Below, piece by piece: positions 3,964-49,941 of a stretch of DNA of 64,000 nucleotides. The first letter of the stretch is position 1; every line of letters starts with the position of its first letter. A program made the position numbers and the translations under genes. The notes under the pieces were generated by a model that saw only the letters and a list, made by a program, of their open reading frames with translations, was not told the origin of the DNA and made no database searches. Source of the DNA: Anolis carolinensis. Taxonomy: Eukaryota. Location: contig NC_085846.1 of NCBI RefSeq assembly GCF_035594765.1, positions 13,875,190 to 13,939,189 of the forward strand, read 5' to 3'.

Positions 3964-4097
3964 CAGCCGTGGGCAAACTTTGGCCCTCCAGGTGTTTTGG
4001 ACTTCAACTCCCACCATTCCTAACAGCCTACCGGCTGTTAGGAATGGTGGGAGTTGAAGTCCAAAACACCTGGAGGGCCAAAGTTTGCCCACAGCTG
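3964..4097. mobile_element. Palindromic hAT-like MITE (about 134 bp)
   Basis: Near-perfect foldback gggcaaactttggccctccaggtgttttggac... Confidence 0.8.
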
Positions 4098-5228
4098 CAT
4101 TAATGCATCTCTTACAAGAGACATCCTCCTCAAGTCTTGGGGTGCCATACAGACTCATTGTGGTCTATGCTCCCATGGATTTGAGCCCACCCACTCTAAT
4201 ATCTCACCTGGCAGGAGAGAAATGTCCAAGGTGTTCCCCTTCTTTGGATGACGCCTCTTCGCTCTCCCAAGGCTGAGAAGGTGAGGGTCAGAGGGTTCAA
4301 GGTTGGCCTTTTTTGGGTGGGGAGATACCCCTCTGGGAGTCTTGCAGCCCCCCAGAAAACAAGCTCCAGCTGGAAGTCTAGACTTCCTCTTGTTTACAAA
4401 CCAGAGCTGAGAAACAAAGGTGTCTCCACCCCTTTTTTCTCTCCCTCCTCCTTTCTGCAGGCTTTCCCCTTCGCTCCTTCCTCTTCCTTCCCCAGCCAAT
4501 GAAGGCACAGCATGCAAATCAACTGCAGAGTTTTGGAGAGGGGAGGGCAGGCCAAGGGAGGAAGCACATCATCTGGCACATGAGAGGTGGGCGGAGGCAT
4601 GGGGGGCGCATGGGGGCTTGGGCTGCAGGTGGGCAGCAGCACAGGTAGGCCAGGCTCAGCCCCTGCTCCTCAACCTGTGCAAAGTGCTTTGGCCTTGTTT
4701 TTGGAGAGCTGTCACATCCGAGGATGCCACTGCCAGGCATCTCTGCATTTTCTGTTTACCAAAAAAAATAAAATAAAAAATAAAGGCCAATATGCTGCAG
4801 ATGAAACAATGACGCTGTAGATAAGAATAGACTTGCGTTAGAAACAGGAATAGCTTCCCTATTAGGTCTCTGTGCCAAAATAAAACTTCACGATGCGAAC
4901 AAAAGCAGCTCTTGCTGCAAATGGAATCGATTTTGGGTTGTCGTGAGTCTTACGGGCTTCCCTCAACCTCAGAGGATGCCTGCCATAGGTATGGGCAAAA
5001 TATCAGGAGAGGATGCTTCTAGAACAGGGGTCCTCAAGCTTTTTAAGCAGATTGCTAAAAAAAATATAGGTATGTATATGTATGTATGTATGCTTGCCCA
5101 CAATGCCCTGCCTCATGCACGGAGGAGGAGTTGTTTAAAGCTACGGACAATGCGATTGCTGTTGCCCGCTTTTGGTCCAAAACTGTTTAGCTGTTTGTGA
5201 TTCCTTTATTTTATCACTTTTAAACCTA

Positions 5229-5946: not shown

Positions 5947-6262
5947 AGTAAGGTAAAAGTTTCCCCTGATGTTTGACCGACTCTGGGGGTTGGTGCTCAT
6001 CTCCATTTCTAAACCGAAGAGCCGGCGTTGTCCATAGACACCTGCAAGGTCATGTGGCCGGCATGACTGCATGGAATGCCGTTACCTTCTCGCCGGAGCA
6101 GTACCTATTGATCTACTTACATTGGCATGTTTTCAAACGGTTAGGTTGGCAGAAGCTGGAGCTAACAGCGGGCGCTCACTCCACTCCCGGGATTTGAACC
6201 TGCGACCTTTTGGTTTGCAAGTTCAGCAGCTCAGTGCTTTAACACATTTCGCCACCGGGGTT
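5947..6262 (-). mobile_element. Sauria SINE
   Basis: tRNA-derived head with A/B-box-like motifs, conserved body and accttta tail; six similar copies in the window. Confidence 0.85.
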
Positions 6263-6896
6263 CCTGCCATAGATTTGGGCAAAATATCAGGAGATAATGC
6301 TTCTAGAACAGGGGTCCTCAAAATGTTAAAGGGGCGAAATATCTTTTGAAAAAAAATACAAACAAATTCCTATGTACAATGCACATGTCTTAACTGTATT
6401 AAAAAAACAAAACCCAAAACGACAACAATGAAAAAACAATACAATATTTAAAAATAAAAACAATTTTAACCAACATAATCCTATTAGGAGTTAAATGGGA
6501 AGTGTGGGCCAGCTTCTGGGCAATGAGATAGTCAAGTTAATTAGGATTGTTGTTGTTGTGTGCCTTCAAGTCATTTCAGACTTTGGGCAAGCCTAAAACT
6601 GGGGGGGGGGAGGTAAATGACCTTGGAGAGCCGTATCCATAAGCCTTAGTTTGGGAACCCTGTTCTAGAACATGGCCATACAGCCCGGAAGACTCACAAC
6701 AACCCAGTGATTCCGGCCATGAAAGCCTTCGACAACACATGGAATAGATTTTAATGAGTCTTTCAGAAAGTTCAAGGCAATGCATCTGGCCCCATACTGA
6801 GGATGGGGAAAGTATGGCCCAATGCCATGTACAGACTCTGAGGGACAATTATATAGCCACTGAAACCCCTTTTAAAATCCTCAACCCTCTCCAAAA

Positions 6897-7175
6897 TGTG
6901 TTGTCAAAGGCTTTCATGGGTTGCTGTGAGTTTTCCGGGCTGTATGGCCATGTTCCAGAAGCATTCTTTCCTGACATTTCGTCCACATCTATGGCAGGTA
7001 TCGTCAGAGGTTGTGAGGTCTGTTGGAAACTAGGCAAGTGGGGTTTATATTATATATCTGTGGAATAATGTCCAGGTTGGGAGAAAGAATTCTTGTCTGA
7101 GGCAAGTGTGACTGTCTTAATTGATCACCTTGATTAGCATTTAATGGCCTTGCAGATTCAAAGTCTGGCTGCTTC
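6897..7175 (-). mobile_element. Penelope-like terminal fragment (hammerhead core CTGACGA/GAAA/GTC)
   Basis: Reverse complement of the same family. Confidence 0.65.
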
Positions 7176-7392
7176 AGATCTTGTCTGATCTTGGTTACTA
7201 AGCTGGGTCTGGCTAATAGTTGGATGGAAGACCACCAATGAATAGCTTAGGCTATATAGCAAAACCACCTCTGAATAGTCATTGCATAACAAAACTAGAA
7301 ATTCAGGGCTTGCTATAAGTCAACAGAGGATGTAAACATTTGTTTAAATTGGGTGTTGTGTGGTTTCAGAGCAATGTGGCTATGTTCTAGCA

Positions 7393-7526
7393 CAGGCATG
7401 GGCAAACTTTGGCCCTCCAGGTGTTTTGGACTTCAACTCCCACAATTCCTAAAAGCCGGTAAGCTGTTGGGAATGGTGGGAGTTGAAGTCCAAAACACCT
7501 GGAGGTCCGACGTTTGCCCATGCCTG
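7393..7526. mobile_element. Palindromic hAT-like MITE inserted in a Penelope-like fragment
   Basis: Foldback; TSD ttctagca/ttatagca. Confidence 0.82.
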
Positions 7527-8116
7527 TTATAGCAGCATTTTCTCCTGATGTTTCGCCTGCTTCTGTGGCTGGTATCTTCAGAGGATTTGTTTAAATCTTT
7601 GTTTATCCATGTAATGACCTCTAATCCTTATTCAAGCGATGTAACTCCTGTGCTGGCAAAATTGCCCCTTCAGACAAGCATGATCTGTGCCTTTTTGGCT
7701 TTGGAGGGAGTAAGAAGACTCAGTCTTGTTCAATCTGCAGAGGTTTCACTAAGCAAGGAGTCACACCACTAAATTAAAATGTAAGATTAGACAATAGGGT
7801 CATTTTGACAAAAAGAACTGTAGAAATGTTAACTTTACCTAACTATAGTAATAAGACATATTATTACACAATATTTGGAAAAAATAATTTTAATAAATGT
7901 ATCTGGGCATCATCACACTCACATTAAATGCTCCCAATTGTACCTGGCTTAAGCTGCCAGTGTCAACTCACCCTTTAATGTCTATAATTGCAGCAACTAT
8001 TAAGCTGTGCCCATGAAATTAAATTGTTAGAATTTTTTTTTTGCAGGAAACAGAAATTATTTTGTTATGAACAGGATTTGTGAGCTTTATTGTTGTGGTG
8101 GTGATGACGGTGTGCC

Positions 8117-35300: not shown

Positions 35301-37149
35301 CATTTGGAGTGTCCAGCTTTGCCCATCTCTCTCCTATGTGGAAAACCTGAAGGAGTTGGCTACATTTAACTTGTACAAGAAACTACCAGGCAACATGATA
35401 GTAGCCTTCATATATTTGGACAACCATCACATGTATAATGGAACAAATGTTTTCTGTCACTCCAGACTACAGGATTTGTACTGATAGGTTTATACTACAA
35501 GGAGGAGGATTACTGCTAAACATTAAGAAAAATGTGGATGCCAAACCAACTGGCAGAGCAACAGTGTACTCCTCTTTGCTAATGTTTCTAAGCAGAGACT
35601 GCATCACTTGTCAGGAGCATCGTAGTGGAAGATGTCCTGCAGTGGCAGGGTGCTGTACTGGATAACCTTCAACACCTCTTCTAAATTGACAATTCTGTTT
35701 TCCCTCCCCATCAACTCAAAAGCAAGACATGACATTACACATGGAAGGAATAAAGGAATGATTTATTTCAGGGTCTTTATACAATTCAAAGCAGGAGAGG
35801 ATGGGGAGGCATTAAATCCCTTCAATCCAGATTCTTTCAAAATATAACATCAAAAAAGGAAGTCCATCCTATGTCACCACATGTTCAAGATCAGGCTTCT
35901 CCAACTGGACCCATCCAGATGTGTTGTATTACAATTCCTGCCATCACTGACATAAGGGCTAGGGATGGTGGGAGGAGTAACCCAACACATTGGAGGACAC
36001 TTGGCTGAAGGAGAAGAGTCCAGGCAATGCTGTTTGAACAGAAGCTTCCTCCTCAGCCAGAAAGCTAAAGAAACAAAAGACTTTTTGCACTTTTTGCTTA
36101 CAGAATTTTCCTTTGGGAACCAAAAGGTTCCAGCAGTCTTAATTTATCCAAAGTGATGCACATATGGAAGGGCCTAAAAGGTTAATCCATCTGAGAAGTG
36201 GCACTTCTTTAAGGCTCACTTTGAAATGAAGTGGCTTCATTCCCACTTTCAGTGGATGCCAAAAACAAATAACTTGCTCCTTTCACTGCTCACATATCTA
36301 AAGTGCCTCCTCCGCCCACAAGCTGGCCAGTTGTAATGGGATAACTGGGCTGTCCCCTCAGGACACACAGAGATGATCATCCTTCATCTTCCCAGTCTTT
36401 CCCTCCCTTTTAAATTAATGTTTCCTGATCACTGCAGGCTCAACCGTTTTTTGAATTTGTTCTGCATGGTAGAGACTGGGCGTTAAAAATACACATAGTT
36501 GTTTAAAAATATCATAAAGGAGTGGAGAATTAGGTGGCAGCCATGTTAGTTCATAGCAGCAAGACGACAAAAGTGCCATGTTGTTGCAGGGCCAATTTAT
36601 TTATCAAGGCATTGTAAGAGTTTGCATACTCAGCTGTCCAATTTCTCAGATAGATGCAGGTAGGGGAGGAAGCGAGGGAGACATCTACGAACTCTGTCCT
36701 CCCCAATTGGAGGAAGCAGAAGACATTGAAAGCCCTCTTTGCCAGCTGCACAGCTTTTCAAAACAACACATTTAAAGCAGGAGGGGCAGACATCTGCCCT
36801 TCTTCAAACCAAGCACACTTTTCAGCATCTGATGAATCTTAGCTTGCACTGTATACCAGATGGGACCCACAGCGATGAATATGGTCAGATGTGCAACTGC
36901 AGACATTTCAAAATGGCACTAACCCAAGGACAAAAGCCAGCATAGACGTGCTCCATTTGTGCATGGAGGAACTGGGACCTCTGTGTTCTTGAAGAGTTTT
37001 GTGCAAAACTGAGCCAGAATCTTTGGGTTCTGTCTCCAGCTTTCAAAGGGTAGTGAGGTTCAAGTGGATTACTGGAAGGAGACTCCAGGAGCCGGAATTT
37101 TACGTTCAACTCCCCTTGTTAATAATGCCCAAGGGATCAAAAATGGCCC

Positions 37150-37525
37150 TGCTAAACTTAGCATTAGTTTATTAACTAATTAACAAAGACAATAAAATGC
37201 CAAAAAAGAGGAGATGACACTCCCCCTTCAATTTCTCCGAAGGGGGTGTAAAGGGTAGGGGCAACCGATTTCCCTTCCCTCCTGCAGAGGAGGAGCAGCC
37301 CCTCCCCTTCCCCAACCTGGGCACCAGGGTCTCACCCCAACACATCACATTAAGGGGGACCAGAGATGGGTTACCAGGGTTCACAGCCACGTAGCAAAGC
37401 GCAGTTGTACAGCAAGTCAACAGGGGCACCCCCAAATTGGTACTCCCTGAATCCTGTGCTCCCCTCAAAAAATCTGATAGGGGAGCCGGGTACAGTCCCA
37501 AATCACCTCCTGTTGAAGCAGAGAC
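37150..37525 (-). other. MAPK3: Probable non-coding terminal exon (3' UTR) of MAPK3; may extend to about 35750
   Basis: Strong acceptor ttcttgttcttacag| at 37525; AATAAA candidates at 37168-37173 and 35762-35767; mammalian MAPK3 also has a non-coding last exon. Confidence 0.55.
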
Positions 37526-38490
37526 CTGTAAGAACAAGAAATCAAGTGAACATTACGCCTCCAGACAAACAGTCTGGACTACAAACCAGTTGGCTATTGC
37601 TTAAACCAGAATCTTTTGAGTAATTTATGATGGCATAACTGGAGGAAGAGTTTATACAAGCACAACTATCACTTCCTGTGTTGTGTAAGGAAATATTTGG
37701 TACTTCCTGGTGCAATAATTTTTATAGCCTGTAGAACAGCTGCTGGATGGTGTCCAGGCCAAGCCAAATGGACAGTTTTGCTCTCCTTTGCTCTCCTTTG
37801 CCCTACAGGATTATTGGCATAAGTGAGCTGCCACACTTTACCAGCTTCAAATAGGACCCATGCATGTTGCAATTTACCAAGCTTGCTACAGTGAATCCAC
37901 AAATTCTATACATGCAAACAGACCTTAATTTTGTGTTAGCAAAGCTTCAAGAGTTCCTTGGAACACCAAGAACTGTTGCAAAATTATAGCAACAAGTGGG
38001 GATAGATTCAACATGTATTTGAAGGGAATTTAGCAATACTTCTTTGCATCACACATATCTCAGCAGTTCAGTTAAAAGGCCTTTCTGTGTGTGAGGCAAA
38101 CACAGGAAGCATGGTTGGTGTTTTGTATCTATTTCATAATTTGCTTTAAGTGATTGCCACTTGAATTAGTCCCATTATGTAGGACTACCTCAGTATGGCA
38201 ACATTTCCACGGCTCTTTTGGCAATGTGAAGGGATGTTTCACTCACTTGTTTGAATCATATTTTAACTATCCCCAACTAATCAGTTGTAGGATTATTTTT
38301 CTTTTTCTTAGGAAAAAACTACTACAGAAATATGAAGCCATTTAAATCTCTGATAATCTGAACATAGGTTATATCCACATCTCTAAATCAAAAGAGTAAC
38401 CCTAGGCCAAAAGTACATCTAACATACATTGAAGTCTAGTAGTCCATTTTAAAAAATGAAGATATATTCACCAATGGTCCAAACAACCCT

Positions 38491-38610
38491 TCAGGGACCT
38501 TGATAGCCAGGCTGGAAGCGTGCTGTCTCCTCAAATATCAGTTCTTTCAGCTTCTCTTTGGGAAGGTCATCCAGCTCCATGTCAAAAGTGAATGGCTCTT
38601 CAGCAACGGG
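38491..38610 (-). CDS. MAPK3: MAPK3 exon 8 coding part ([39 protein letters not shown])
   Basis: ctag| acceptor; TGA at 38493-38491; probable donor TTG|gtgaat at 38472/38471. Confidence 0.95.
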
Positions 38611-38789
38611 CTAGAGGGAGCCAAAGCCAGATAGATAAAATCCAGTTATCCTGGTTCTTAAATGTCTTCCTCCCAGACCTGCTAGCTATGCTGGGAGCTG
38701 CAGTTCAAGAAGCTTAATTTTTTTGAGTTCTGGACTTTCTCTTTCCTCATTCTGCCCCCCAATCCTGTCAAACCCCAAGAACCAAGTAC

Positions 38790-38899
38790 CTCATCTGAGG
38801 GGTCGTAGTACTGCTCTAGGTAAGGATGGGCCAAGGACTCCTCCACTGTGATGCGTTTGTTGGGGTTAAAGGTCAACATTTTGTCCAACAGGTCTAGAG
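38790..38899 (-). CDS. MAPK3: MAPK3 exon 7 ([37 protein letters not shown])
   Basis: 110 nt; ctcag| ... GAG|gtactt. Confidence 0.95.
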
Positions 38900-39554
38900 C
38901 TGAGAAGATACATAAGAGAATGTACTATGAACAACCAAACAGCAGATGGCAATAGAAGCAACAATGCTATTTCTTCTTACATGTTGATAAACAGATGGTT
39001 GTAGGGATGGAACGTAGCCAGAGGTGGCAGCAGAGTGCAGTTTAGGATGGCAACTGCTGGTTTTTAAGGCAATAGGTCAGAACTCCTAGAGTTGGCTATG
39101 TGCCAGACTTACAACTGTGTCAAGTGAAATCTCCATAAAGCATGAGACCAACTAGATCTGCGTGCACCCCACAGACAATGAGCTTCCAACAATGGTTGGC
39201 CAGATCACTCACAAAATAATATTTTAACATTCTCATAAAGTTTATCTAATATTTTCATAAATATTCTACCTCCAATGTAGAGGACCCAGTTAGCAATTAC
39301 CCTGCATTAGCTTGTCAAGCCCCTTAGAATCTAATCCAGTATAATGGAAGGAAGGAAGCTAAGCAGTTGCTAGCAAAAGTAGAAAAAGAGCAGATGTCCT
39401 GGGTCAATTTTTAATTCAGGATTGGCTCCAGGCTATAAAACACTGAATACTTCTAGCACAGGTAACTGGCATTAGACAAATATATATGTTCTGGGATCCA
39501 CACTATGAGTCACATAGTCTATAAAATGTGCATATTCTGCATTCTTTTCCTCAC

Positions 39555-39686
39555 CTTTGGGATCTGCCTTAGGAAACAGTTTGTTCCACGGAACCTTGGG
39601 CTTTTGGGGCAGCGACTGGAGATAGTTGCGAGCCTTCATATTGATGATGCAGTTCAGGTCATCCTGAGATGGGGAACCTAGAATAC
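39555..39686 (-). CDS. MAPK3: MAPK3 exon 6 ([44 protein letters not shown])
   Basis: 132 nt; ccag| ... G|gtgagg. Confidence 0.95.
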
Positions 39687-39834
39687 CTGGAGAGATGGAT
39701 AAGCAGAACATTGTTTGGGATCTAGGATGAGACAAGGCTTAGAGAAGAAACAGGTATCAAATCTGTAACAAGGTTGATTTCAGGCATTAAAAGGAGTGTA
39801 ACCAGAGATCAAATGAGGGAAAGCCCACCATTTA

Positions 39835-40020
<186 letters not shown>

Positions 40021-40690
40021 CTAAGAAGAGAGGAAAGACATGGAAAGAGAATCCTTAGTCCATTCTTGTTCACATAAAGTCATATATAGCAACTGATCTG
40101 TGAATGTCACTTCTTGCCCCTTGCATTACAGCAGCTTTTAACCAGAACAAAAACTCAAATTTTCAATCCCTTATAGAGAAAAGCATCTTCAACTGTTGAG
40201 TAAGTGAGCAGTATGCAGGAATACCTTCTTTCTTTTAGCCAAACCTAGACCTACAATGGAGGTGATGTGCAAAAATCTTAGAACTCAATATCCCAATAAG
40301 AAAAATAAGGTGGCAGTTTAAGTAATGTAGAGATGAGGAAGAAAACAGACAATGGGAAGGATGGCGCTTGAAGGCAGGGACAAGCGTAAGTGTGGATATC
40401 CTGTCACATGAAACTTAACTGATAAGGGACAGGAAATAGAAAAAAATCTGGTAATTGTATTGTGGCTTTTTGCTGTCATTTGCTGTATTGTGGCTTTTTG
40501 CTGCAGTAAGCTACAGAAACAACATGATAAAAGCCTTCTCAAATGTAAAGGGAATGCTTTAGTTTATCTGTTTCATAGCTTAGAAGCTATTTTCATTTAA
40601 GACCAAACTAGATCTTATTTTTCTTTTCAAGGGAGTCAGGAAACCACATGCACAATTATTTAAGGAACCCTGGCTTCCAAGCCCCCTCTA

Positions 40691-41753
<1,063 letters not shown>

Positions 41754-41936
41754 ACATCACGCATCTGATCAATAGTAGGGGCACGCAGAATGTCATTGAT
41801 GCCGATGACGTTCTCATGTTTAAAGCGGAGTAGTATTTTTATTTCGCGCAGTGTGCGTTGGCAATAAGTTTGATGCTCGAAGGGACTGATCTTTTTGATG
41901 GCAGCTCGAATCTTGTTCACGTGGTCATAAGAAGAA
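41754..41936 (-). CDS. MAPK3: MAPK3 exon 2 ([33 protein letters not shown]...MRDV)
   Basis: 183 nt; acag| acceptor; ends at the U12-type donor |GTATCCTTG. Confidence 0.95.
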
Positions 41937-42637
41937 CTGTGGAGAAAGGAAGACATGGGCAGATAAGGATCACGAGATCTGTGCTGTCTTCTTAGTATGT
42001 TATTTCTGCACACTTTCATAGTGGAAATTATCCAGTATCATTCCAGTGGAAGAAAGAAATGTGATGTTTTACAAGAGAAACTGGCAAATAGCCAGGTACA
42101 GGCCCTAGATTTGCACCTTAAGTCAATGGGATTGATTCAAGAACAGAAGCACAGGAAACATCAAGTTTTCACAATATAGATAATGAAATGCAATAGTAGA
42201 TAAGAGTTCAGCTGTTCAGCACTGTGCATTCAAATGGCAAGCTTACCAGTGTTGACACAATTGAGACCTGAAAGGTGATAACTCTTAATAATATGGAGAA
42301 ATAATTCTAAGGCAAGTCAGGACCATCATTCTAAGCATCATGTATCTGGGCTTTTTCACTCACATAGACATGATGTTTAGAAAGATGGCCATGAATAAAT
42401 CAGCCTAAAAAAGCTACAAGTATTGGAGTTCAAGTAGAAACTTAGGCATCCATTCAATGTAGTCAATTCAATAATATGGTGGTTGTGTGTGGTATTCTAA
42501 AATATTATTAAAAGTATTCTGGATTAGAGAACCCTTCTAGACATAACTAACATCTACTGCAGTCCAGACACCTACAGGCTAATATTAACATAAACACTAC
42601 AAGTCATGTGTTAGTGTAGGACCAATATGCCATACTT

Positions 42638-42868
42638 GGGCTGCATCTACACTGAACAAATAATGCAATTTCACACCACTTTAACTGCCATATTTCAATG
42701 CTATGGAATTTACGGGAGTTGTACTTTGGTGAGGTACCAATACTCTTTGGCTTAGAAGGCTACAGGCTTTGTAAAATAACATCTCACAGGATTCCACAGC
42801 ATTGAATTATGTGGTTAAAAGGGTGTGAAACTGCATTAATTCTATAGTGCTATAGTGTAGATGCACCC
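42638..42868. mobile_element. Harbinger-like MITE (gggtgcatctacact TIR family); relatives at 11511-11650, 12326-12475, 15193-15337, 25037-25167, 43109-43320
   Basis: TIR ggg(c)tgcatctacact / agtgtagatgcaccc; superfamily assignment tentative. Confidence 0.6.
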
Positions 42869-43327
42869 TTAGCGTTAGTGAAACCATTTGTCAAACAGAT
42901 CTAAAGTGGTCAAACAGACCAGGTACTGAGTGGGATTGACATCTGGTGGTGTGGCTTAACGACTACACGGCAATGAAAGACTTGGAAGGTAAAAGCTTAG
43001 CTAACGACTGGGTTCTTGCAGTGCAATTATCTGAAAGATTGCTATCAAGGACAATTTCTTCATGGATTGCTGCAACAATGTCAGCCGCCTCAGGCTCCCT
43101 GATATCGTGGGGTGCATCTACACTGGACAATGAATGCAGTCTGACACTGCTTTTAAACGCCATGGTCCAATGCTATGGAGTTGTTGTTTTTACAATGTTT
43201 CTAGCCTTCTCTGCCAAAGACTGCTGGTGCCTTACCAAACTACAAATCCCGGGGGTTCAACAGTCTTGAGCCATGGCTGTTTCAAGTGGCATCAAATTGC
43301 ACTAATTCTACAGTGTAGAACTACTTA

Positions 43328-43508
43328 AATTTGTCCCTCCAGGTGTTTTGGACTTCAACTCCCACCATTCCTAACAGCCTCAGGCCCTTTCCTTTCCCCC
43401 CTCAGCCGCTTAGGCGGCTGAGGGGGAAAAGGAAGGGGCCTGAGGCTGTTAGGAATGGTGGGAGTTGAAGTCCAAAACACCTGGAGGGTCCAAGTTTGCC
43501 CCTGCCTG
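43328..43508. mobile_element. Palindromic hAT-like MITE (long variant) in MAPK3 intron 1
   Basis: Foldback centred on cagccgcttaggcggctg. Confidence 0.8.
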
Positions 43509-43739
43509 TTCTACAGTTGTATGCAGCCCTCAGCGTTAAACTCACAAAAGGGCCTGGTGCTGGCACTCTACCAAGGCAGAGCTTTAGCCAAGAAGCCTGG
43601 CAAATATTGGCCCAGAGAGATAGCGGGCCAATCCCTGGGAGGAGCTTAGTAGGCGGCAACAATAACTTTGCAGGCTTGGGGTGTGTTTTATGTGCCCGAT
43701 GGGCTTACAGTGCAGCGTTTTCCAGAGGTGTAGGACTTC

Positions 43740-44560
43740 AACTCCCAGAAGCCTCCGCTGGGTCTACGGGTTCTTTGGAGGGTCGAGAGGCGCACATTAT
43801 GGAGAACGACACCCTCTTTTATGGGGAGGTTCAGGAACTTAAATTAAAAATAAAAAACAATATGGCGGAGGCCTGGTTCAGAGGCTACGGCAGCCGCGCG
43901 GGGCCAATTTTAGAACGCTGGGTACGGCGGCTGGGATGGGCCATTCCGCGCTTGCTCGCTCGTTCACTCACCACACCATTCCGTAGGCGCCCTCGCCGAT
44001 GTACTGCAGGTCCGTGTAGCGCGGGCCCACGTCGAAGACCTGCCCTTTCACCGTCTCCACGCCCAGCCTCGGCGCCCCGGGCACCGGCACGGCTCCTGCC
44101 CCACCAGGCGCTGCTGCTGTCGCTGCCGACATGGCCGATCCGCTGGAGAATCCCCTGCAGCCGCTCCTTAGTGCTGCTGCTGCTTTACCCGGAACCGACA
44201 CCGCCCGACGGCACTGCGCAGGCGCTGGCCTGGGAAGCTGAAGGGATGGTCACTGCGCATGCGCTCCTCAGAAGCTGCGGCTGGGAAGTTCTCTCCCCCC
44301 AGAGCGCATGCGCAGGGTTTGCCTGCTATAGCGATATACACACCGCAGCTCGCCTGGGTGGGATTGGGACGTCAGGGACTCAACCCGGAAGCGCCGCACC
44401 CAAAACATTCCACTCCAGCGAGGCCCCGCCCCCTCGGGCCCGCCCCTTGGCTCAGCGCGCCGCCAATCCCCTGCTCGAGGCCCCGCTCTTGTTCTTCTCT
44501 CAGGCCCCGCCCCTTCATCCTCCTTCCCCCCCCCCGTAATCACGTGTTCGAACCCCGAGT
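43740..44560. promoter_or_regulatory. CpG-island, TATA-less promoter of MAPK3
   Basis: Only strongly CpG-rich stretch in the window; NRF1-like GCGCATGCGC at 44255 and 44304, ETS CCGGAAG 44385, GACGTCA 44368, GC boxes 44424-44512, CCAAT 44463, CACGTG 44541. Confidence 0.85.
43972..44132 (-). CDS. MAPK3: MAPK3 exon 1 ([53 protein letters not shown])
   Basis: ggccATG at 44132; donor TG|gtgagt; Ala/Gly-rich N-terminus. Confidence 0.93.
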
Positions 44561-44724: not shown

Positions 44725-44990
44725 GGCTTTATTCCCCCAGGCAGTAAACCGCCAGACCTTGAAACTGAAAAGCTATTCAATGCTAATCAAGGTGGCCAAT
44801 GGAAACATTCACACCTACCTCAAACGGACAAGAATTCTTTCTGCCACCCTGAACAGCTATATAAACCCCACTTGCATAGTTTCCAACATACCTCACAGCC
44901 TCTGAGGATGCCGGCCACAGATGCAAGCAAAAGGTCAGGAGGAAATGCTTCTGGAACATGGCCATACAGCCAAGAAAACTCACAGCAACA
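44725..44990 (+). mobile_element. Penelope-like terminal fragment with a degenerate hammerhead
   Basis: ...tataaaccccacttg...cctcacagcctCTGAGGAtgcc...GTCagg...catggccatacagcc. Confidence 0.65.
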
Positions 44991-47607: not shown

Positions 47608-47845
47608 GTTCAAGTTATGTAGGTGGCTTTGTGTCTCAATCGAGAGATACAAGTGAAATATAAATAAAATGAGAACTAATAGGGTGAATCTCCTTTTCCA
47701 ATTGCTTCTTAACATCTTTATTAATGACTTAGATGAAAGGCTAGAAGGCATAATCATCAAGTTTGCAGACAACACCAAGAAGACAGAAGACAGGAGCAGA
47801 ATTCAAAACGATCTTAACAGATTAGAGAGAAGGGGCGAAACTAAC

Positions 47846-47985
47846 CAGATATATATTAACTTTCTTTGCTTAGTTTCTCCATACCTCACAACCTCTGAGG
47901 ATGCCTGCCATAGATGTGGGCGAAATGTCAGGAGAGAATACTTTTGGAACATGGCCATACAGCCCGGAATACATACAACAACCCT
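47846..47985 (+). mobile_element. Penelope-like (PLE) terminal fragment inserted in a CR1 copy
   Basis: Same family as 44725-44990 and 6897-7175; flanked by a ctaac direct repeat (47841-45 / 47986-90). Confidence 0.7.
47885..47936 (+). ncRNA. Minimal type-I hammerhead ribozyme motif in a Penelope-like fragment
   Basis: CCT-CTGAGGA-t-GCCTGC(catagat)GTGGGC-GAAA-tG-TC/AGG: core boxes, stem II and stem I present; predicted cleavage after 47929. Confidence 0.7.
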
Positions 47986-48823
47986 CTAACAAAATGAAGT
48001 TCAACATGGACAAATGCAAGAGACTCCACTTAGGCAGAAAAGATGGAATGCAAAGATACAGAATGGGGGACGCCTGGCTCGACAGCAGTACGTGTGAAAA
48101 AGATCTTGGAGTCCTCGTGGACAACTAGTTAAATATGTGCCAACAATGTGATGCGGCGGCAAAAAAAGCCAATGGGATTTTGGCCTGCATACATAGGAGT
48201 ATAGTGCCTAGATCCAGGGAAGTAATGCTACCCCTCTATTCTGCCTTGGTCAGACCACACCTGGAATACTGTGTCCAGTTCTGGGCACCGCAATTGAAAG
48301 GAGATATTGACAAGCTGGAATGTGTCCAGAGGAGGGCGACTAAGATGATCAAGGGTCTGGAGAACAAGCCCTATGAGGAACGGCTTAAAGAGCTGGTCGT
48401 GTTTAGCCTTCAGAAGAGAAGGCTGAGAGGAGACATGATGAGGGCCATGTATAAATATGTGAGTGGAAGTTATAGGGAGGAGGGAGGGAGCTTGTTTTCT
48501 TCTGCCCTGGAGACTAGGACACGGAACAATGGCTTCAAACTACAGGAAAGGCAATTTCCTGAACATTAGGAAGAACTTCCTGACTGTGAGAGCTGTTCGA
48601 CAGTGGAACTCTCTGCCCCGGAGTGTTGTGGAGGCTCCTTCTTTGGAGGCTTTTAAGCAGAGATTGGATGGCCATCTGTTGGGGGTGCTTTGAATGTGAT
48701 TTTCCTGCTTCTTGGCAGAATGGGGTTGGACTGGATAGCCTGTGAGGTTTCTTCCAACTCTTTGATTCTAAGAATTAAAACACAGATGTTGGTTCACCAT
48801 TAGAAGAAGTCAGTTTTACATCA

Positions 48824-49749: not shown

Positions 49750-49941
49750 TGGCATGGGCAAATTTGGGCCCTCGAGGTGTTTTGGACTCCAACTCCCCCA
49801 ATTCCTAACAGCCTCAGGCCCCTTCCTTTTCCCCCTCAGCCGCTTAAGCGGCTGAGGGGGAAAAGGAAGGGGCCTGAGGCTGTTAGGAATTGGGGGAGTT
49901 GGAGTCCAAAACACCTCGAGGGCCCAAGTTTACCATGCCCG
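49750..49941. mobile_element. Palindromic hAT-like MITE (long variant) nested in a Harbinger-like MITE
   Basis: TSD atctacac at 49742-49 and 49942-49. Confidence 0.82.

Follow-up and report, generated by a model that had tools for sequence, protein, structure and literature searches.

A minimal type-I hammerhead motif in a truncated, LINE-inserted Poseidon_Ac copy of Anolis carolinensis, very likely an inert passenger

Hammerheads of Penelope-like elements (PLEs) are reported to cleave as dimers (Lunse et al., as cited in PMC6765202). For the minimal hammerheads (min-HHRs) of metazoan PLEs, inactive monomers and weakly cleaving dimers were described in vitro (Cervera and De la Pena 2014, PMC4209133). 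The PLE layout includes head-to-head partial copies of which one end bears a tail, and the function of the hammerhead was called unclear in print (PMC8557442). In the green anole, Penelope insertions are abundant and often polymorphic, and 16,208 of them have been listed (PMC7561263). The closest described system is the PAc hammerhead of Poseidon_Ac in Anolis carolinensis (Frangieh et al. 2024, PMC11167929). In that paper, cleavage was seen only with the PAc protein. It was abolished by the single mutations C3G and G8C, with partial rescue when they were combined, and the ribozyme was dispensable for insertion in vitro. The PAc RNA is expressed, and the paper reports no RNA-seq reads that start or stop at the cleavage site for the whole Poseidon_Ac family. 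The open reading frame (ORF) starts at stem II, and the cut site lies 26 nt after the start codon. The minimal insertion template requires the first 172 nt of the ORF; this limit was measured for insertion, and a protein-binding motif within these 172 nt is the hypothesis of the authors, who had also already suggested a folding role for the PAc protein. Two internal start sites of reverse transcription were described, with a tail of 30-40 nt between them and the lower one at +111-118.

The locus studied here lies on the plus strand of the window, by which we mean the whole 64,000-nt stretch of DNA that was analysed. All motif elements listed in the preliminary description were recovered between 47885 and 47936 (+), and the minimal type-I hammerhead topology it proposed was borne out, with CTGAGGA, stem II, GAAA and GTC all present. 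The catalytic core CUGANGA (C3-A9) with an extra U occupies 47895..47902, with CTGAGGA at 47895-901 and the extra T at 47902, between positions 9 and 10.1. The Poseidon start codon (47901..47903) stands at the start of stem II, in agreement with PMC11167929. Stem-loop II (47903..47921) has 6 bp (47903-08/47916-21), two of which are G.U, and a 7-nt loop; its pair probabilities were 0.85-0.99 and G47903-C47921 forms the pair G10.1-C11.1. It is followed at 47922..47929 by GAAA (G12-A15.1, 47922-25), T (U15.2, 47926) and GTC (47927-29). The family cleavage site falls after 47929, where the preliminary description had also put it, and this agrees with the published cut 26 nt beyond the start codon (PMC11167929). 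Concerning stem I, the claim held in part. Its 5′ strand (47885..47894, outer CTC at 47885-87 and inner CCT at 47892-94) and its 3′ strand (47930..47936, AGG at 47930-32 and GAG at 47934-36) do offer 3+3 complementary bases, but their pairing was predicted with a probability of at most 0.02.

The core CUGANGA, GAAA and the NUH triplet are thus all as in PLE minimal type-I hammerheads. Like the metazoan min-HHRs (PMC4209133), the motif is of type I without a monomer helix III, shares the extra nucleotide at 9/10.1, G10.1-C11.1, a long helix II and a short, putative helix I, and belongs to a class found mostly as dispersed solo copies. In contrast to them, it has lost the palindromic 15.2-16.2 that would form the dimer helix III and reads U15.2/G16.2. 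We also searched both strands of the window with a minimal-hammerhead descriptor (3-bp stem I, CUGANGA, an optional extra base, stem II of at least 4 pairs, GAAA, a short spacer, UH and the stem I partner). It matched once, at 47885-47936, whereas 300 dinucleotide shuffles gave 0.01 matches on average; when stem II was set to at least 6 pairs, none of the 300 shuffles gave a match. A looser pattern of the core alone matched twice (47885-47936 and 6973-7007 on the minus strand) against 0.04 expected. The Rfam search proposed in the preliminary description returned no hammerhead family at E values up to 10, neither for the whole window nor for 47840-47995 alone. This is unsurprising, since the motif has no helix III; the stable helix III and the loop-loop contact of canonical Rfam hammerheads are both lacking here. 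Pattern scans for relatives gave 0 matches in metagenome contigs and 0 in viral contigs.

The Penelope-like origin suggested earlier was supported by the match to the 361-nt Poseidon_Ac template printed in PMC11167929. Compared by eye, without an alignment program and against one printed sequence (Repbase Poseidon_Ac), 51 of the 52 bases of the motif are identical. By the same comparison, the segment 47846-47985 matches the template at about 94%, with seven substitutions (47861, 47926, 47940, 47944, 47958, 47967 and 47970) and two one-base indels in 140 nt. Both indels recur in contigs from the runs. The segment (47846..47985, +) is therefore a 5′-truncated Poseidon_Ac fragment of 140 nt, the ends of which were set by the duplication and the contig joints described below. 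It comprises the last 55 nt of the pLTR/UTR and the first 85 nt of the ORF (28 codons). Near its 5′ end, an AT-rich, TATA-like stretch of the pLTR (47849..47859, +) is a putative promoter, and two sibling copies have a similar stretch at their 5′ ends. At 47940, a non-CpG site, A makes up about half of the family depth and the published template has G; this A may mark a subfamily or may reflect bias in contig placement.

Compared with the PAc hammerhead (PMC11167929), the ORF start at stem II and the cut 26 nt after the start codon are the same, and the 3′ end is that of tail-less family copies. This copy differs in C15.2>U and is a solo one, with 55 nt of upstream sequence, 85 nt of ORF and no RT or GIY-YIG coding part. 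Both the 5′-truncation and the inverted partial copies, tailed at a single end, agree with membership in Poseidon_Ac, whereas an autonomous element would have a single ORF with RT and GIY-YIG endonuclease, of which 28 codons are present. Non-LTR retrozymes (bioRxiv 10.64898/2026.07.22.740005) likewise have a type-I hammerhead related to that of PLE pLTRs, but theirs are tandem, with at least two full ribozymes, and here we have one truncated copy. The conserved hammerheads of amniote introns, e.g. RECK (PMC6155905), share the type-I topology in a reptile genome; they are intronic and conserved across lineages, whereas the present one is minimal, probably intergenic and part of a high-copy repeat. 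We conclude that 47846-47985 is a Poseidon_Ac fragment and is neither an autonomous element nor a retrozyme nor a conserved intronic hammerhead. The motif shares the build of the PAc minimal hammerhead and derives from it, and this ribozyme family is already published and assayed.

The fragment is flanked by a 5-bp target-site duplication, with the left copy at 47841..47845 (+) and the right copy at 47986..47990 (+), both supported by the sequence and by contig joints. In all four runs (10, 4, 7 and 5 contigs), a joint from 47840 to 47986 skips 145 nt, with five letters fitting both sides; these contigs are other LINE copies or empty alleles. Once the 145 nt are skipped, the reading frame of the LINE on the left of the fragment resumes on the right. 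The upstream part of this multi-copy host LINE (47690..47845, +) has an open reverse-transcriptase frame that continues past the insertion, and its downstream part (47991..48770, +, 3′ limit approximate) has one stop within the first 50 codons. Its protein reads like a CR1-type reverse transcriptase, which is our assumption, and a Pfam search gave no family for the LINE flank on either side. At each of 47984 and 47985, 252-430 loose contig ends per run were found in all four runs, and beyond these positions they run into mixed AT-rich sequence or a tail. The pile-up shows that +84/85 is a common end of the family copies, and tailed siblings extend about 30 nt past the +85 end. This end fits the two published internal start sites of reverse transcription with a tail of 30-40 nt between them, if the upper site is placed, as we do here, at +111-118 minus the tail. 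From PMC11167929 and the ends seen, the element endonuclease would nick the LINE, reverse transcription would start within the RNA of the element, close to ORF nt +85, and halt after 140 nt, repair would leave the 5-bp duplication, and later CpG decay would turn C15.2 into U. As copying starts just downstream of the ribozyme, short copies mostly carry it regardless of any use.

The only change in the motif relative to the template is C>T at position 15.2 (47926). The preliminary description regarded this T as CpG decay of a palindromic ACGU, and the family majority and the Poseidon_Ac template, both C, upheld it. In all four runs, C at 47926 made up 66-68% of the summed contig depth, so the T of the window is the minority form; these depth shares come from contigs at 85% likeness, are biased to the letters of the window and are not copy counts. 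No contig in the runs spans the locus, and the T at 47926 rests on the window sequence. At the other CpG positions of the motif, C11.1>T accounted for 23-31%, G12>A for 16-20% and G16.2>A for 12-15% of the depth. The variation is stated among these listed positions, and unlisted core positions carry no inference. The CpG changes of the motif fall inside the range of 4-40% measured at eight CpG positions of the flanking LINE. With C as the family majority, CpG decay fits the C>T at 47926. G12 is the general base of the hammerhead (PMC6155905), and copies once inserted thus lose catalytic letters freely.

A search of the window with nhmmer, using 47846-47985 as the query, gave 12 segments, 11 of them at E <0.001; some segments are halves of a single insertion. 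Eight segments reach the GAAA-GUC part, and none of the eight has the full family motif. T at 15.2 was found in five of them, A at 16.2 in three and a lost G12 in four, and the 5′ core was absent in two. The copy at 47885-47936 is the best preserved in the window and the sole full-core copy by the descriptor. Covariation, which the preliminary description would have expected in stem II of the family, was not seen at the pairs compared: compensatory two-sided changes numbered 0 at 9 pairs (71 cells, alignment A1; few copies from one genome). Sibling copies decay at catalytic CpGs without compensatory change. The copy at 54827-54834, previously quoted for its palindromic form, does read GAAACGTC, but it is not a hammerhead and has no CUGANGA, and it was ruled out as an intact ribozyme for this reason. 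It belongs to a sibling head-to-head Poseidon insertion (54707..54910), which is tailed at one end and has a 13-bp duplication. The plus half of this insertion begins at the ATG of the inversion junction, without CUGANGA; from the other half, C11.1 and G12 have been lost. The junction sits on a 3-base microhomology at the ORF ATG. There is no partner copy in tandem with our motif. The closest same-strand copy is 3 kb off and has lost G12; the copy at 44852 was rejected as a tandem catalytic partner, as G12 is lost and stem II is broken.

Several other Poseidon copies in the window deserve a description. The segment 19284-19404 is a second head-to-head composite insertion, again tailed at one end, and its duplication measures 8 bp. 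The copies at 6917-7060 (-) and 44852-44989 (+) represent a second Poseidon subfamily, which differs in the sequence that precedes the ribozyme. Like 47846-47985, they start just before the TATA-like stretch. Their upstream sequence, which dominates the loose contig ends at 47883, does not contain the outer arm of the decoy fold described next.

When folded with its own flanks (ViennaRNA), the copy was predicted to adopt a decoy fold at 47874..47937 (+). A decoy hairpin, 47884-88/47896-900 (CCUCA/UGAGG), buries the core with pair probabilities of 0.85-0.98, and a decoy outer stem, 47874-80/47931-37, takes up the 3′ strand of stem I. Opening the hammerhead fold costs 6.4-9.7 kcal/mol across the nine 5′ ends tried. 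A later transcript start was thus ruled out as relieving the decoy, the cost still being at least 6.4 kcal/mol. The 4-bp helix III duplex was estimated at -1.7 kcal/mol for ACGU/ACGU, +0.1 for the mixed pair and +2.6 for the 47885-47936 copy with itself. The dimer helix is thereby weakened by about 4 kcal/mol as a homodimer and by 1.8 kcal/mol with an intact partner. These nearest-neighbour energies leave out Mg2+, tertiary contacts and proteins. In the literature collection searched, no paper was found that deals with a G.U pair at 15.2-16.2. By eye, the decoy bases are identical in the published Poseidon_Ac template. The predicted decoy may explain the protein dependence of the PAc ribozyme, and the hairpin is a small but usable lead on this question.

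Judged from the sequence, the motif probably falls in intergenic DNA, with a MAPK3-like gene on one side and a coronin-1A-like gene on the other. The minus strand carries a protein kinase gene; a CpG island (43500-44500) contains its first coding exon, near 44000-44150, and the motif is located about 3.4 kb beyond this island. On the plus strand there is a DUF1899/WD40 gene, the coding part of which starts near 56450. From their translations, we take the two genes to be MAPK3/ERK1 and coronin-1A, respectively. They are divergent, with the kinase at ~37000-44500 (-) and the coronin-1A-like gene at 55350-64000 (+), about 11-12 kb apart. A candidate non-coding first exon of the latter likely ends near 55420. 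A location of the motif inside the coronin pre-mRNA was rejected, as the end of this candidate exon lies 7.5 kb downstream. Long near-perfect inverted repeats also occur in the window, at 3964-4091, 7393-7526, 43327-43500 and 49757-49934. They score 61-71 bits against Rfam mir-5408, under the 90-bit cut-off, and look like MITE hairpins, not miRNA genes.

Taken together, the motif is the minimal type-I hammerhead of Poseidon_Ac in a truncated, LINE-inserted copy, and it is very likely an inert passenger, with no RNA cut at this site. The preliminary description held that it could still self-cleave if transcribed, and our results do not support this. The intact family motif itself shows no cleavage without the element protein (PMC11167929). 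The copy stops at +85 and so misses ORF nt +86 to +172, which the minimal template has; in the predictions, the core lies buried in the decoy and the dimer helix is weaker by about 4 kcal/mol; and the site is apparently intergenic, with no tandem partner copy. For all these reasons the copy is likely to be inert. Against this, every catalytic core letter is intact, a G.U wobble of the changed base could still arise in a dimer, and the motif, taken as the substrate strand for an intact copy, would keep the two core-proximal pairs. The copy might accordingly be viewed as a conditionally active relic, whose transcript would form a double hammerhead with an intact Poseidon RNA and be cut slowly after 47929, the decoy being removed by the PAc protein or another chaperone, with no benefit to the host. 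The intact core, stem II and GUC agree with such a relic, and so does the small loss, 1.8 kcal/mol, of a mixed helix III relative to the intact one. In addition, there is expression of PAc RNA, whose ribozyme is assisted by protein (PMC11167929), and min-HHR dimers cleave weakly in vitro (PMC4209133). However, constraining the RNAs to the double hammerhead raises the energy by 17-35 kcal/mol over that of the free cofold, and RNA-seq ends at the site were reported as lacking even family-wide (PMC11167929). We therefore consider slow conditional cleavage unlikely. Still less likely, with only a slight chance of being true, is the full sequence of events in which the copy is transcribed from the TATA-like stretch or the MAPK3-like CpG island and pairs with the RNA of an intact Poseidon copy, the element protein melts the CCUCA/UGAGG decoy and cleavage occurs in trans after 47929. 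If it were true, the many dispersed fragments would form a genome-wide series of protein-switched cleavage sites, working at any time when Poseidon is expressed, and the published protein dependence would be due to the decoy hairpin acting as a switch.

Recruitment by the host, with the ribozyme ending transcripts that run from the MAPK3-like CpG-island promoter toward the coronin gene, would suit the plus strand of the motif, its distance of about 3.4 kb from the island and its standing as the sole full-core copy in the window. Domesticated hammerheads have indeed been described in amniote introns, but these are canonical, intronic and deeply conserved (PMC6155905). The copy is close to the template of a young family, so its preservation needs no selection; its single change falls on a functional position, and a decoy fold is predicted. 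Hence we regard recruitment as hardly credible. A chance resemblance to a hammerhead has practically no probability. It would agree with the lack of an Rfam hammerhead match and with folding z-scores of -1.5 to +0.4, whereas the descriptor expectation is 0.01 per window, and the motif is nearly identical to a ribozyme that C3G, G8C and rescue mutants have validated (PMC11167929). The match to the assayed Poseidon_Ac motif refutes it. Under the preferred reading, that of an inert passenger, this copy matters little, since truncated copies of this ribozyme-bearing retroelement are many and the element has already been published and assayed. The question of PLE hammerhead function is made no easier by 47846-47985 than by the intact element.

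The Poseidon copies at 6255-6745 and 7350-7590 (also 4960-5030) are split at the same site by short elements. The interrupting elements have terminal inverted repeats and an 8-bp duplication, and are presumably hAT-like. The shared interruption site suggests a preferred target just downstream of the ribozyme.
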